Source: an uncultured Candidatus Woesearchaeota archaeon (GTDB lineage: Archaea; Nanobdellota; Nanobdellia; Woesearchaeales; UBA525). Taken from it: a DNA stretch of 64,000 nt. Under the pieces are notes generated by a model. That model was not told the origin of the DNA, did not search any database, and worked only from the letters and a program-made list of their open reading frames with translations. Every line of letters begins with the position of its first letter. Position 1 is the first letter of the stretch. This document shows positions 15,733 to 20,654 of this stretch, piece by piece. The DNA lies in contig CAVRUV010000024.1 in NCBI GenBank assembly GCA_963724455.1, positions 19-64,018 of the forward strand. Direction: 5' to 3'. The translations under genes and the position numbers were made by a program.

Positions 15733-16625
15733 ATGCTTATTGCAAATGTGGTATTAGATTCTTTTTCAGAAGGGCTTCCATATAGGAGGACATTGTATCT
15801 TTCAGAGAGTGTTTCGATAGTTTTTACATAATTTTCAAAAGGCCATAATCTATAATCATTCATTCCTTTGTATTGCCCGGGATTTTTTCCACCGGCAGGA
15901 CATATCGCAATCCATTTTTTTCCTGTACTCTTTTGTATATCATAGAATTTTGTTCTCTTAAGATATGCATCTACGTGTTTTTCTTCTTTGCTATCAGGGT
16001 ACATTGTTGGCCTGAACAAAAGATCTTTTTTCAAGTCTTTACTCGCGAATGTAAAACCGAATGGAGCTAGTAAGTCAAGATAATACAATATTTCGTGTTG
16101 CGTACCCCGGTATTGCACATTGTATGTGTTCATATTTGGCAAGACTTTGGCTAATAATCCTGGTTCTTTTGCTCTAGTAAATCCGACTCTTATTTTTGCT
16201 ATAGGACGAGCAAACCATGAAGCAAGAGGAGTCTTATCCAGAACAAAGACGAGATCATATCTTGCACGCGTAAGCTCTCTTCTTATTTTTAATAATGCCA
16301 ATGTGTTACTAACACTTTTTTGAAACAATATTGCATCATCTACAAATATTGCTTTGTCAATTGCAGGGTTATTGATAATAGGGTCTTTAGACCATTTTCC
16401 GACAAAATAATCTATTTCTGCATCCTTGAATATTTCTTTTAATTGACGCACAAATGGTGTTGTAAAGATGACATCTCCTATTGCGCCAGCTTTTATGATG
16501 AGAATTTTTTTAATATGTTTATGAGGTATTTGTATTGCTTGTTTTTTTATGATAGCTTTTGTGTTATTTGTTTTTGTTACATTACTTCTTTTGCTTGTTT
16601 TGTTTTGCTTGTTTTGTTTTGCCAT
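15733..16625 (-). CDS. glycosyltransferase family 9 (heptosyltransferase-like); 3' end truncated at junction 2
   Basis: KKILIIKAGAIGDVIFTTPFVRQLKEIFKDAEIDYFV is the GT9 N-terminal signature. After about aa 297 (...LLYGSPSEKESNTTFAIS) the ORF reads antisense of the Gfo gene. Confidence 0.7.
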
Positions 16626-16710
16626 GTTCTCATACGTCGGTATATATGTCTCATGTTCATATTATATTTAGGTTATTATATTTATACTAATTTATACTGT
16701 TATAGTTATA

Positions 16711-17055
16711 TCAGATTGCAATTAAAATAATTCCGAAAATAATTAAGCCGATACCAGTCCAGCGCCACACATCAACCTTTTCTCCAAGATATTTTGCAGA
16801 TAATCCTGCCGCCCAGACATAATTTAGGCTAGTTAATGGGTATGCTATTGATATTGGTAAATATTTTAGTATGATTACATACAATGCAAGGCTTAATGCG
16901 TAGAGTAATCCTGCAAGCAAGAACTGCCAGTTCTTAATAATCCTAATAGGGTGCAGCTTGAATGTTGCAGCACTAAGTTTTAGAAAGAACATGCCTGTAG
17001 CAGATAGTAATGTCGCGATGATTAAAAGCCCGATGAGAAAGAATGTGTTTGCCAT
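16711..17055 (-). CDS. half-size EamA/DMT (ArnE/ArnF-like) membrane protein
   Basis: 114 aa, 4 TM segments. The C-terminal pattern YPLTSLNYVWAAGLSAKYLGEKVDVWRWTGIGLIIFGIILI is typical of a single EamA domain. Confidence 0.6.
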   Translation of the reverse strand: MANTFFLIGLLIIATLLSATGMFFLKLSAATFKLHPIRIIKNWQFLLAGLLYALSLALYVIILKYLPISIAYPLTSLNYVWAAGLSAKYLGEKVDVWRWTGIGLIIFGIILIAI

Positions 17056-17066
17056 GTTCTCCTCAA

Positions 17067-17564: not shown

Positions 17565-17618
17565 GTGATCACAATTGCTTTTTTCTTCGTTTATTTTTTT
17601 CTGTTTTGTCTGTTAATT

Positions 17619-20600
17619 CTAGTTTACTACAACAGTTTTGTTACCGGAAGTTATTTTATTTGTTGTTGTGTTTTGTGTTGCATTCAGGCGTGAAGCTTTT
17701 CCATCCCAATCAACTTTCCAAATAAGTACTCTTGTTCCGGTAAAGCTAGTTCTGTCATCAAATTTGATGAAATGGTCACTATATCTTCCATCTAAATAGA
17801 AGAGTTGTGTGAACATGCTCTTAGCGAGCAACGGATCTGTTATCAGAACACGCTTATTTACAGAATCATAAACTACAGCAACGCTGCTTGTTTGCTCTTT
17901 GAAGTTTATATCTTGCATTTTTTCAGGTCCTGCAATTACTAATAGCGCCGGAGTTCCATTTGTGATGCCGCCGACTTTTTGTCCATTCTGGTATAACCCA
18001 TAACTAATAGTGCTCTTTTCAGGAGCGCTTTTGTTGTAGACAAATGCTTCCATTGTAGTAATTGATGTTCCTTGCTGTCCGATACGTATATTGAGTGGAC
18101 ATTTTGAAGTATAATTATTTTCAGAACAAGACAACCATGATTGTGTTACATAACCTGGCCATGGTGCTGCAAATGAATTAATCTCTGCTTCTGATGTGAG
18201 TGATTTTGCTTCAAAGTAAATTTGTTCTGCTTGATCAGCAGTCATATTAAATCTCTTGGTAAAATCATTAACAGCATCTTCTCTACTGAGTTCTTTTGAT
18301 TTTGTTGCAATATATGCTCTTGAGAAATTCCAGAGCCCAAAGTGTGCCCATACACCTGATTTTCCAACCATATCGCCGCTTGTTATGAAGTAGTCTTCAG
18401 GTGGGTTGCAATGGGTCGCATTTATTATTTTCAATTGCTCTTCTGCATTATATCCGCGCTGAATCAAGTATTCTTTTACTTGTTCTTTGTTAAGAACAAT
18501 AATTTCGCGCACCATCTGTTGTGATAAAAGCGGATCATTATTCTTTTTGAGGAACATACCGTATGCCCCATAATCTCCAGATGAATCAGGGTATACATCT
18601 GAACCGCAAGTGAGCATGCGCAAAGTTCCCATTGCTTCATCTTCATTTGTGGTAACAAGCGATAATCCAAGCCATCTAGGTACGTGAGTGTGCTGTGATG
18701 TTCCATCAGCAGTAACTCTTCGATCTGCTACGTACTTGAACCAGTGTCCAAAGTCCCACCATGAATTGATTATAGCATCTGGTGCGGATTCTTTCTCGAC
18801 TTTTGTAAGTGAGTCCCACCACGCATCATCGATACTTGGAACGAATGTTCTTGCAGTTTGATATCCTGCACGTACTGGCTGAATAAGCAATAGCGCAATG
18901 ATGAAGAATACTCCAACATTAATGATGTACTCATGTATCTTGGTTTCTTTTTGTAAGTATACAGTTGTCCATTCATAGATTCTGCCAGCAAGTACTGCAA
19001 AGCCGATACCGAATGCAGGTACCATGAGTAAAATGAAACGTACACCACTATATACTGCAAATGTCGTTGCCATAAACCATATTAGGATTATTAGTGCCGC
19101 TGCAATATCTGCATCCTCATCTTCAAACAAGTAAGTAACTAATATTATTCCAATCGGCAATGCGATTAGTAATATTGTAGTTATCCTTCCTGCATTTGAG
19201 TTGAGTGCGTAAATTGATAGCATCGCGCCGATTGCAAGTAGCACATATTGCTTCCATCCCCATTTGCTTCGTGGAAGAACGAGAAGCAGCATTCCAATCA
19301 TGCAACCAAAGAAAAGAAGTGTACCGCCCATAGTAGCGACTGCGTCTGCAAATGATGATTTGTTCAGTTCAGCTACTGTTGTTAGTACGTTTGGCCAATA
19401 ATTACTTGTGATTGCATTATCTAGCAATGCGCTATGTGCTAATGGTTTTATCGGTAATGATATGTAATCTATAGCGCTCATTCCACCTATGCTGTTATAC
19501 GAGGAAGTTATGGTTGTTACAATGAATGTACCGACATAGAATATTGCTAGAACAATTACTGTAGCAATTACTTTGCTATCTTTCCAGAATTTTGGATCTT
19601 TTTCACGTATAACAGTAGTTAGTATTCTAAAGATTATGTATGATGCAACTGCAAAGAGGATGATGAGATAACTGAACCACCAAGCATCCCATGTTGCTGC
19701 TTGCACACCAATTACTATAACTGAAAGTATGCTGTAAATTATGCGGGACTTGAGTGTTTTTGCTTCAAGTGCTTCTATTATCATCCATATGAGGAATAAT
19801 GGTATAACGACGTTCCATATGTCGTTATCGCTTCCCATACTTCTTGAGAGCACCAGTGGATTGATTGCAATTAGTATTGCTGCAAATACTCCGCCGATAT
19901 TTCCCGCAAGTCGTCTTCCGATAAAGAATGCAGGAATAACTCCTAGAATCCCAACAATTACAGGAACTAAGAATGATGCTGCAGGTAGCGGGTAATTACT
20001 ATTGAATAATGTTATGAACTTGTATACGCCCAGTATTGCAAATACGTGCAGGCTTGGATTATAACTTCCGGGGGTACCATATGGCGCAATGGTATGATCG
20101 TCGCGGCATTCGCCATTGACTATTACGTCGCAGGTATTACCGTGACGTAGAATATTTCTAGTATATCTTAACCAAAAATAACTATCAAGATCGCCTAAGT
20201 ATGTGTATTGTTTTCCATCATCGCCAGTGTAGCGCATGTATGTTTTGAACTCTTGAGATAGCTGTTCTTTTGCTTGAGTATATTGAGCGGCATTTGTTGT
20301 GAGGAAATCTTTTGTTCGTTTATCTATTAGTGCATTTCTATTCTGGTCAGGAAGAGCGGGGAACTCTGCATCGACTTGAGCGCTGATCTGGCTTCGGATA
20401 TTTTGTTGAATAGTATTATCTGCCCAATCATCTGTTACGGGGAGCGCAGTAGGAAGCATTCTGATATACAGTACGAGGAGCATGCATGCAAGTATGAGCA
20501 CTGTTACTGTTACTGCTCCCACATTGAAGCGTTTGAAGAATTTGCTGACGCCACTGAAGTTGATTTTCAAATCGTCTTCTGTTTGCGTCTCTTGCGCTGC

Positions 20601-20654
20601 TGGTTCTACTGGTTTTTGTTCAGAGTGTTGTGTATGTTGTCTTTTTTTTGCCAT
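17619..20654 (-). CDS. aglB: archaeal oligosaccharyltransferase AglB/STT3
   Basis: 1011 aa. It has a multi-TM N-terminal half, the catalytic loop motif INSWWDFGHWFKY (WWDYG class), and a large soluble C-terminal domain. Confidence 0.85.
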   Translation of the reverse strand: MAKKRQHTQHSEQKPVEPAAQETQTEDDLKINFSGVSKFFKRFNVGAVTVTVLILACMLLVLYIRMLPTALPVTDDWADNTIQQNIRSQISAQVDAEFPALPDQNRNALIDKRTKDFLTTNAAQYTQAKEQLSQEFKTYMRYTGDDGKQYTYLGDLDSYFWLRYTRNILRHGNTCDVIVNGECRDDHTIAPYGTPGSYNPSLHVFAILGVYKFITLFNSNYPLPAASFLVPVIVGILGVIPAFFIGRRLAGNIGGVFAAILIAINPLVLSRSMGSDNDIWNVVIPLFLIWMIIEALEAKTLKSRIIYSILSVIVIGVQAATWDAWWFSYLIILFAVASYIIFRILTTVIREKDPKFWKDSKVIATVIVLAIFYVGTFIVTTITSSYNSIGGMSAIDYISLPIKPLAHSALLDNAITSNYWPNVLTTVAELNKSSFADAVATMGGTLLFFGCMIGMLLLVLPRSKWGWKQYVLLAIGAMLSIYALNSNAGRITTILLIALPIGIILVTYLFEDEDADIAAALIILIWFMATTFAVYSGVRFILLMVPAFGIGFAVLAGRIYEWTTVYLQKETKIHEYIINVGVFFIIALLLIQPVRAGYQTARTFVPSIDDAWWDSLTKVEKESAPDAIINSWWDFGHWFKYVADRRVTADGTSQHTHVPRWLGLSLVTTNEDEAMGTLRMLTCGSDVYPDSSGDYGAYGMFLKKNNDPLLSQQMVREIIVLNKEQVKEYLIQRGYNAEEQLKIINATHCNPPEDYFITSGDMVGKSGVWAHFGLWNFSRAYIATKSKELSREDAVNDFTKRFNMTADQAEQIYFEAKSLTSEAEINSFAAPWPGYVTQSWLSCSENNYTSKCPLNIRIGQQGTSITTMEAFVYNKSAPEKSTISYGLYQNGQKVGGITNGTPALLVIAGPEKMQDINFKEQTSSVAVVYDSVNKRVLITDPLLAKSMFTQLFYLDGRYSDHFIKFDDRTSFTGTRVLIWKVDWDGKASRLNATQNTTTNKITSGNKTVVVN

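Follow-up and report, generated by a model that had tools for sequence, protein, structure and literature searches.

We report on a 64,000-nucleotide stretch of DNA (the window) from an uncultured Candidatus Woesearchaeota archaeon, corresponding to bases 19-64018 of contig C24 of a metagenome-assembled genome (MAG; genome label G000; 1.26 Mb in 45 contigs, 83% complete, with a guanine-plus-cytosine (GC) content of ~37%). Four minus-strand open reading frames (ORFs), separated by intergenic gaps of 54, 11 and 85 nt, encode an oligosaccharyltransferase of the AglB/STT3 family (17619..20654), two half-size EamA-domain proteins of 165 amino acids (aa) and 114 aa (17067..17564 and 16711..17055), here named subunits A and B, and a heptosyltransferase-like protein of glycosyltransferase (GT) family 9 (15735..16625). 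The order, strand and positions of these genes agree with those of an earlier interpretation made from the nucleotide sequence without database searches (the sequence-only reading), which had proposed the pair as a flippase for the AglB pathway. Our analysis favors, with moderate confidence, a related role: A and B would be the archaeal counterpart of ArnE/ArnF and flip a sugar linked to dolichyl phosphate (Dol-P) as part of a module resembling known three-component systems. This reading is carried by the ArnE homology, the small multidrug resistance (SMR) fold, the tandem arrangement with opposite charge bias, the gene order A-B-GT2 and the phyletic link to PMT_2-type enzymes, from which the formation of a heterodimer, the substrate and the direction of transport are proposed.

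Sequence, fold and predicted topology of the pair

Both subunits exceed the gathering threshold of the Pfam EamA profile (PF00892; 33.4 bits for A and 38.0 bits for B, threshold 28.2), each of them matching a single half-repeat (profile positions 32-134 of 135). Against NCBIfam, the best match of B is ArnE (2.2e-14), followed by ArnF (1.3e-8), with the other SMR subtypes at 2e-5 or weaker, which places B roughly nine orders of magnitude nearer to ArnE than to the Qac, Gdx and Ebr models. A is about equidistant from MdtJ (its best match, 9e-9) and ArnE (3e-8). A hidden Markov model (HMM) of the B family gives ArnE at 1.7e-21, and in BLASTP against E. coli K-12 proteins, ArnE aligns with B at 31% identity over 103 residues without gaps and with A at 31% identity over 59 aa, with no match of either subunit to ArnF. 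A word-indexed homologue search yielded only 11 close relatives, and close homologues carry the name 'ArnE' in the JGI pipeline. The analogy to ArnE/ArnF holds at the level of sequence, fold and architecture, with the correction that both subunits, which are paralogues of each other, resemble ArnE.

The pair recurs as the same tandem, in the same order, in 22 of the 41 genomes of the order that formed our comparison set, with HMM E-values down to 1e-45, which argues against these small ORFs having arisen by chance. A always precedes B in these 22 loci, commonly with a 4-nt overlap. Here, a strong Shine-Dalgarno-like motif, GAGGAG, lies 5 nt upstream of the ATG of B, and the two genes are in different reading frames, so a natural read-through fusion is not expected. 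Subunit A of this genome ends in a low-complexity tail of ~45 aa rich in Lys and Gln (window positions 17067-17200) that is much longer than in its orthologues.

Four hydrophobic segments were found, predicting proteins with four transmembrane (TM) helices. Structure modelling covered B as a single chain: the AlphaFold2 model, built from an alignment of 20 orthologues, has four long helices and a mean confidence (pLDDT) of 92.9, and its best Foldseek matches in the PDB are EmrE and Gdx-Clo, over the full length, with TM-scores of 0.69-0.80 and a probability of 1.0, followed by the halves of SLC35 and LicB. Across 21 A and 20 B sequences, no conserved Asp or Glu was found in any TM core; the lack of a membrane-embedded Glu is a trait of lipid-type SMR proteins, as opposed to the proton-coupled cation exporters (PMC9574504). 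The positive charges of the two subunits are distributed in opposite ways. In B, Lys and Arg gather in loops 1 and 3 (19 of 20 sequences), and in A at the N-terminus, in loop 2 and at the C-terminus (18 of 22 sequences). Following the positive-inside rule, A is predicted to insert with both termini inside (N-in/C-in) and B with both outside (N-out/C-out), and the two would form an antiparallel heterodimer, as SMR heterodimers do. The fold, the size and the antiparallel logic, with opposite topologies set by Lys and Arg, are common to EmrE, Gdx-Clo, EbrAB and MdtIJ; unlike these, A and B lack the central Glu, making proton-coupled cation export unlikely, and are much nearer to ArnE in sequence.

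The closest known parallel is ArnE/ArnF (PmrL/PmrM), the flippase for undecaprenyl phosphate-alpha-L-4-amino-4-deoxyarabinose (Ara4N) of E. coli and Salmonella, which is likewise encoded by two adjacent genes for four-TM SMR-type proteins of ~110-130 aa and also lacks the central Glu of SMR proteins. The order arnT-arnE-arnF in E. coli mirrors aglB-A-B, the pair directly following a gene for an enzyme of the GT-C fold in both, and both pairs are partnered with a GT2 of the polyprenyl-phosphate sugar synthase type (ArnC in bacteria), whose contiguity with the pair in this MAG is deduced rather than read. The differences are that A and B are archaeal, would act on a dolichol carrier and are both ArnE-like, that the adjacent GT-C enzyme is the AglB oligosaccharyltransferase in place of a lipid A transferase, and that genes for Ara4N synthesis are absent.

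Gene neighborhood and distribution of the pair

AglB (1011 aa; family GT66, GT-C fold) matches Pfam STT3 at 4.5e-35 (122 bits, cut-off 24.5) and STT3-PglB_core at 1.5e-4, and carries the WWDFG motif at residues 632-636. Residues D157 (in DLD), D276, E429 (in TVAE, a motif of the TIXE/SVSE type) and W632-W633-D634-G636 are invariant across eight AglB orthologues, and the profile of these eight matches human STT3A, yeast STT3, the A. fulgidus AglB structure 3WAJ and PglB. As judged from its sequence, AglB is a genuine STT3-family enzyme. The profile is far closer to the eukaryotic STT3A (3.8e-29) than to the archaeal structure 3WAJ (3.5e-15). Single-sequence PDB searches with AglB or with subunit B returned nothing useful, and the match of AglB to the archaeosortase-associated subtype TIGR04154 (57 bits) is under the cut-off of 450. 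On the other side of AglB, a divergent plus-strand gene (21062..22645) encodes a PrsA/SurA-like extracytoplasmic peptidyl-prolyl isomerase (Pfam Rotamase_3, 4.8e-18; SurA_N_3, 2.1e-14), a neighbor conserved in the genus and found in the same divergent position in loci L014, L015, L017 and L034.

In genus members and in metagenome contigs, the order is divergent isomerase, AglB, A, B, a GT2 of 240-250 aa and DUF2304, with genes of the heptose pathway, for a polytopic DUF6541-like protein and for additional GT2 and GT4 enzymes lying beyond. The GT2 next to the pair lacks TM segments and matches PpgS (1e-33, best), AglJ (1e-30), Dol-P-hexose transferase (2e-15) and ArnC (1.5e-8), which assigns it by similarity to the polyprenyl-phosphate sugar synthase type. 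AglJ makes the first Dol-P-hexose of the N-glycan in haloarchaea. The GT2 ortholog of this MAG (67% identity, residues 119-252) is truncated at its N-terminus where contig C21 ends and is oriented outward, and the true order is probably AglB-A-B-GT9, a missing segment of ~0.6-0.8 kb, and then GT2. Further genes of C21 encode DUF2304, a heptose-7-phosphate kinase, a second member each of GT2 and GT9, a 10-TM protein of the DUF6541 type, a GT4 and methyltransferases. Seven of nine genus members have the arrangement AglB-A-B-GT2(-DUF2304), as do the metagenome contigs L034 and L038 and two more distant loci, L045 and L047; in genome G011 the order is AglB-PMT_2-A-B-GT2, and in L043 and L048 an A-B-GT2 group lies 6.5 kb from AglB. 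In total, A, B and GT2 are adjacent in at least four different architectures.

The anchor-less, PpgS/AglJ-like GT2 and a three-TM DUF2304 protein are the most conserved neighbors of AglB in Woesearchaeota (L040, 14376-15643), the core AglB-GT2-DUF2304 being kept in ~38 of 80 surveyed AglB loci (L041-L120). By analogy with DPM3 and DPM1, DUF2304 might serve to anchor the synthase or to partner it in the membrane.

The module suggested by this order recalls three-component extracytoplasmic systems (GtrA/GtrB/Gtr-type GT-C, or mycobacterial PpgS with Rv3779; PMC11127046), in which the polyprenyl-P-monosaccharide made by a GT2 is flipped by a small four-TM protein and then used by a GT-C enzyme on the outside. 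The likeness lies in the best match of the GT2 to PpgS, in the order seen in G011 and in the co-occurrence with PMT_2-type enzymes, which is correlative. In contrast to these systems, the predicted flippase would be a heterodimeric ArnE-like pair instead of GtrA, and the module is archaeal and lies inside an aglB operon.

Among the 41 genomes, 22 have a bona fide pair and two a single copy, and we counted all 24 as pair-bearing; AglB is present in 39. The pair abuts AglB in seven of nine genus members and is separated from it by 2-4 kb in G011 (behind a PMT_2 gene), G022 and G031, giving 10 of 24 pair-bearing relatives with the pair within ~4 kb of AglB. A wider survey of 80 AglB loci from GTDB species representatives, covering records labelled Woesearchaeota or Nanoarchaeota, found it within 10 kb in seven, and a high-scoring GT2 follows directly wherever both subunit genes could be read (six of these seven loci). 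The linkage to AglB, described as tight in the sequence-only reading, is thus limited to this genus and a few other lineages; elsewhere in the order the pair sits between secDF and pyrH. In genomes with the order SecF-SecD-A-B-PyrH (e.g., L025, 5684-9842; similar in L023, L024, L029 and L031), AglB is found 20-60 kb off or on a different contig. The AA_kinase-family neighbor in this arrangement was considered as an isopentenyl-phosphate kinase, which would have given a link to isoprenoids, and rejected, as it is an archaeal UMP kinase above the cut-off. Two further loci (L068 and L085) have the order SecF-SecD-AglB-GT2, which hints at an ancestral neighborhood of secretion and glycosylation genes.

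The pair is missing from 17 of the 41 genomes, including all nine members of genus g2 and G002, a member of the same genus as our MAG that is 96% complete. Since 16 of these 17 keep AglB, the pair is not required for AglB function, and its presence is unrelated to that of AglB (p = 1.0). Where the flank could be read in the pair-less genomes (six cases), the GT2 directly follows AglB.

A different pattern was obtained for PMT_2-type GT-C enzymes other than AglB, which are present in 22 of 24 pair-bearing genomes (mean 2.8 copies) vs 7 of 17 pair-less ones (mean 0.6 copies; Fisher p = 0.001; 17/0 vs 5/4 when collapsed by genus, p = 0.008). Five of the seven pair-less, PMT_2-positive genomes have GtrA, in G037 and G021 as a GT2-GtrA_DPMS_TM fusion, immediately followed by a PMT_2 gene in G037; a fusion of this kind is proposed to flip the Dol-P-mannose (Dol-P-Man) that it makes (PMC12992685). 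Simple complementarity between GtrA and the pair over all 41 genomes was rejected (GtrA occurs in 6 of the 24 genomes with the pair and in 6 of the 17 without it), and the pattern emerges only when conditioned on PMT_2. Under that condition, it looks like non-orthologous displacement within one pathway slot, a correlation that shared ancestry inflates. GtrA was not found in the genome studied here. As a separate observation, GtrA_DPMS_TM domains also occur in genus relatives inside giant open frames of 1454-1768 aa, which is unusual for a GtrA-type domain (G005:C19, G002:C16, G006:C79, G008:C46 and G017:C64).

Assembly joint, GT9 and heptose genes

The sequence-only reading had its region begin at position 15733. 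The gene positions were right, and coordinate 15733 is an assembly joint, not the end of the GT9 gene. At 15725..15740, a high-GC bacterial segment of ~15.7 kb is joined to the archaeal contig: in sliding windows, the GC content is 50-58% in bases 1 to ~15730 and 33-40% from ~15750 onward, and at the joint it steps from 52-58% to 33-38% within ~100 nt, which is the resolution of the windows. A bacterial Gfo/Idh/MocA gene on the plus strand and the GT9 gene on the minus strand run toward each other at the joint, both without their C-termini, and the Gfo/Idh/MocA protein of the left flank has no ortholog in any of 40 relatives searched. Moreover, high-GC segments sit exactly at one end of seven contigs of the MAG. 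The call of chimerism is based on this composition, the cut genes, the absence of the left-flank gene from relatives and the terminal segments, and the latter suggest that chimeric ends are systematic in this assembly. As a consequence, the cluster is artificially cut after about residue 297 of GT9 and the genes that follow are hidden. Such a chimeric contig would mislead the annotation of the MAG. The first 15.7 kb of the window (50-58% GC) contain AraC, Gfo/Idh/MocA and DUF1080-like genes, and besides window positions 1-15735, high-GC ends of 2-4 kb occur on contigs C7, C18, C20, C28, C31 and C33.

The GT9 gene retains ~297 native residues. Its match to Pfam PF01075 (29.3 bits, cut-off 22) covers only profile positions 2-152 of 247, the gene being truncated, and its match to TIGR02195 spans positions 1-223 of 339; the truncated protein scores far below all heptosyltransferase equivalog cut-offs (WaaC/WaaF/WaaQ; 48.8 vs 134.6 and lower). 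Homology to relatives stops at query residue 289 of 296, seven residues before the joint, and roughly the last quarter to third of the protein appears to be missing. An AT-rich, TATA-like sequence lies upstream of the gene, and a Lys/Asn-rich N-terminal extension of ~35 aa (window positions 16510-16625) is much longer than in the orthologues. The sequence-only reading had counted GT9 as part of the neighborhood of the pair. This was not borne out as a conserved trait and GT9 was rejected as such, as GT9 homologues are missing from all other genus members, the adjacency being unique to this MAG within the genus. GT9-like genes do turn up near AglB (10 kb or less) in 10 of the 80 Woesearchaeota loci, mostly behind GT2-DUF2304.

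The suggestion of a heptose-type sugar fared better, since genes of the ADP-heptose pathway are present elsewhere in the genome (C21 (L040), 10793-12978; C25:18401-18967; C20:8175-9104), which makes heptose in the glycan plausible. An HldE-type heptose-7-phosphate kinase scores 356 bits against the rfaE_dom_I cut-off of 345 and adjoins the second GT9; there is a weak match to HldE domain II, and GmhA and HldD are 56% and 48% identical to the E. coli proteins, a high identity to bacterial sequences that hints at a bacterial origin for both. The genus relatives instead carry GmhA-like (SIS_2), GHMP-kinase and HAD-nucleotidyltransferase genes (GDP-heptose-type) beside the cluster.

Elsewhere in the window, an archaeal signal recognition particle (SRP) RNA is encoded at 33873-34148, which, together with the Woesearchaeota and Nanoarchaeota labels of the AglB-centred relatives, marks the host as a member of the DPANN archaea. 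A tRNA gene of 92-95 nt at 37744-37838 (Rfam tRNA, 56.7 bits) has an apparent intron and was assigned no anticodon by ARAGORN.

Proposed role, alternatives and significance

In the mechanism that we propose, an anchor-less GT2 of the PpgS/AglJ/ArnC-like type would load a sugar onto Dol-P in the cytoplasm, and the antiparallel A/B dimer would flip the Dol-P-sugar from the cytoplasmic to the outer leaflet. No proton coupling is proposed, because a membrane-embedded Glu is lacking. Outward-facing GT-C enzymes, mainly of the PMT_2/DUF6541 type, would then use the flipped sugar to decorate surface glycans, and AglB itself might use it as well. The module would be an accessory one, embedded in the aglB operon in this lineage.

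Several observations weigh against this proposal. The dimer and its substrate are deduced from genes and one single-chain model. The scores of both subunits are under the equivalog cut-offs of NCBIfam, with 53.6 bits against ArnE (cut-off 92) and 35.3 bits against ArnF (cut-off 99) for B, and only 33.8 and 23.7 bits for A (NF011625 and NF002816), which is also about as near to the polyamine SMR protein MdtJ as to ArnE. At least nine genera carry the pair in the housekeeping order SecF-SecD-A-B-PyrH with no adjacent glycosylation gene. The correlation with PMT_2 may be confounded by shared ancestry, genus g2 supplying most of the double-negative genomes, as well as by how large the glycosylation repertoire is overall. 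In this MAG, the pair and the GT2 lie on separate contigs (C24 and C21), whose joining is putative. Moreover, the genome has other flippase candidates, namely a MOP/Wzx protein of the Rft1/AglR type (C39:2605-4113, 502 aa) and an Agl23-like PMT_2 protein on contig C22. The former matches PF01943 at 1.3e-29 and the MOP family at 1.3e-13 and lies beside CDP-glucose pathway genes. The latter belongs to an Agl22/Agl23-like module (C22:9764-12952, L134) in which a 236-aa GT2 similar to ArnC and Dol-P-hexose transferases is accompanied by a methyltransferase and by the PMT_2 protein itself (574 aa), whose similarity to the Agl23 family is weak; no flippase gene was found beside this module.

It is unlikely that the pair is an SMR/EamA exporter of small molecules (a metabolite, polyamine, guanidinium or drug) whose position next to aglB is a by-product of rearrangement in a compact genome. 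The context SecF-SecD-A-B-PyrH, the most widespread one in the order, would fit such a role, as would MdtJ being the best NCBIfam match of A (9e-9). A 2015 arCOG study also found no informative gene context for the short archaeal proteins of the DMT superfamily (arCOG03427/arCOG03426; PMC5898192). These proteins (COG2510), compared here with A and B by description only, are likewise half-size archaeal EamA proteins with no assigned function; in contrast to that study, the context of A and B in Woesearchaeota points to glycosylation. The exporter role is opposed by the lack of a conserved membrane-embedded Glu/Asp, needed by the cation-exporting SMR subtypes (PMC9574504), by the proximity of B to ArnE, its match being nine orders of magnitude better than those to the Qac, Gdx and Ebr models, by the repeated adjacency of A-B-GT2, and by the phyletic link to PMT_2 enzymes and the apparent substitution of the pair by GtrA.

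That flipping of the AglB donor falls mainly to the pair, an SMR-type heterodimer instead of a Wzx/Rft1-type protein carrying a short Dol-P-linked precursor of the N-glycan outward, seems to us quite improbable. The arrangement itself is in its favor: the pair sits directly between aglB and an AglJ-like GT2, the gaps of 54 and 11 nt suggest a single transcription unit with aglB, and the order persists in loci whose AglB is as little as 37-39% identical (L045 and L047). Nevertheless, AglB persists in 16 pair-less genomes, G002 and genus g2 among them, and shows no association with the pair. A MOP/Wzx flippase is present here and in 33 of the 41 relatives, adjoining AglB in several, and ArnE/F, the sole characterized relative of the pair, moves a carrier bearing a monosaccharide. 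That AglB can do without the pair, and that a MOP flippase exists, both argue against an obligatory N-glycan flippase, the main-flippase role being the stronger form of the sequence-only reading. A and B, with four TM helices and 165 and 114 aa, are not of the MOP type (PF01943; ~400-550 aa and 10-14 TM helices). The same job as that proposed for A and B, moving Dol-P-hexose or lipid-linked glycan outward for N- or O-glycans, has been proposed for other archaeal flippase candidates, Agl22/Agl23 of Haloarcula hispanica and the Rft1/Wzx-like AglR (PMC11182771); the large polytopic Agl23 (TIGR03663/PMT_2-type) and the 10-14-TM AglR (MOP) are unrelated to the four-TM SMR-type pair.

DedA and DUF368 proteins return undecaprenyl phosphate in bacteria. 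It is highly improbable that A and B similarly move a free carrier or another lipid, for instance Dol-P from the outer back to the inner leaflet after glycan transfer, since the features in its favor are generic (an SMR-type lipid-facing fold, linkage to carrier-lipid enzymes and very small genomes of 0.6-0.9 Mb), whereas such recycling would be needed wherever AglB works, including the 16 AglB-bearing relatives without the pair, and what the proteins specifically resemble is ArnE, which flips a glycolipid.

The assignment of the pair as a Dol-P-sugar flippase bears on the membrane crossing of lipid-linked sugars, which is the least settled step of protein glycosylation. To our knowledge, among bacterial flippases for polyprenyl-phosphate-linked monosaccharides, only ArnEF is backed by both genetics and biochemistry. 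The translocation of Dol-P-Man and Dol-P-glucose (Dol-P-Glc) across the membrane of the endoplasmic reticulum (ER) is still described as proceeding by 'an unknown mechanism' (PMC12992685). In archaea, experimental support for a flippase exists only for Agl23 and Rft1-like proteins: Haloarcula Agl23 has been published as a candidate flippase for Dol-P-hexose and, when purified and placed in liposomes, flips a lipid-linked glycan, while yeast rft1 is complemented by archaeal homologues of Rft1 (PMC11182771). The view of the sequence-only reading that the archaeal flippase is unsettled, with AglR only implicated, is therefore partly out of date. A full-text literature search found no paper tying ArnE/F-like or EamA half-proteins to the archaeal AglB. 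Extending the proposal to a general family of Dol-P-monosaccharide flippases formed by four-TM EamA/TMEM234-like antiparallel pairs, with A/B as its clearest genomic pointer and the orphan eukaryotic TMEM234 proteins, distant Pfam relatives, as candidate ER translocators of Dol-P-Man and Dol-P-Glc, is a long shot, drawn from the 28.5 bits of B against Pfam TMEM234, just below the cut-off of 30.1.

The host is uncultured, the module is accessory and restricted to certain lineages, and other archaeal flippase candidates exist. The comparative data narrow the claim from a universal N-glycan flippase to a module that behaves as optional, goes with PMT_2-type enzymes and can trade places with GtrA-type solutions. 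If the assignment is correct, a minimal pair of ~110-aa proteins in an aglB operon would provide a small and tractable system for reconstitution, and archaea would be using the ArnC/ArnEF/ArnT design.

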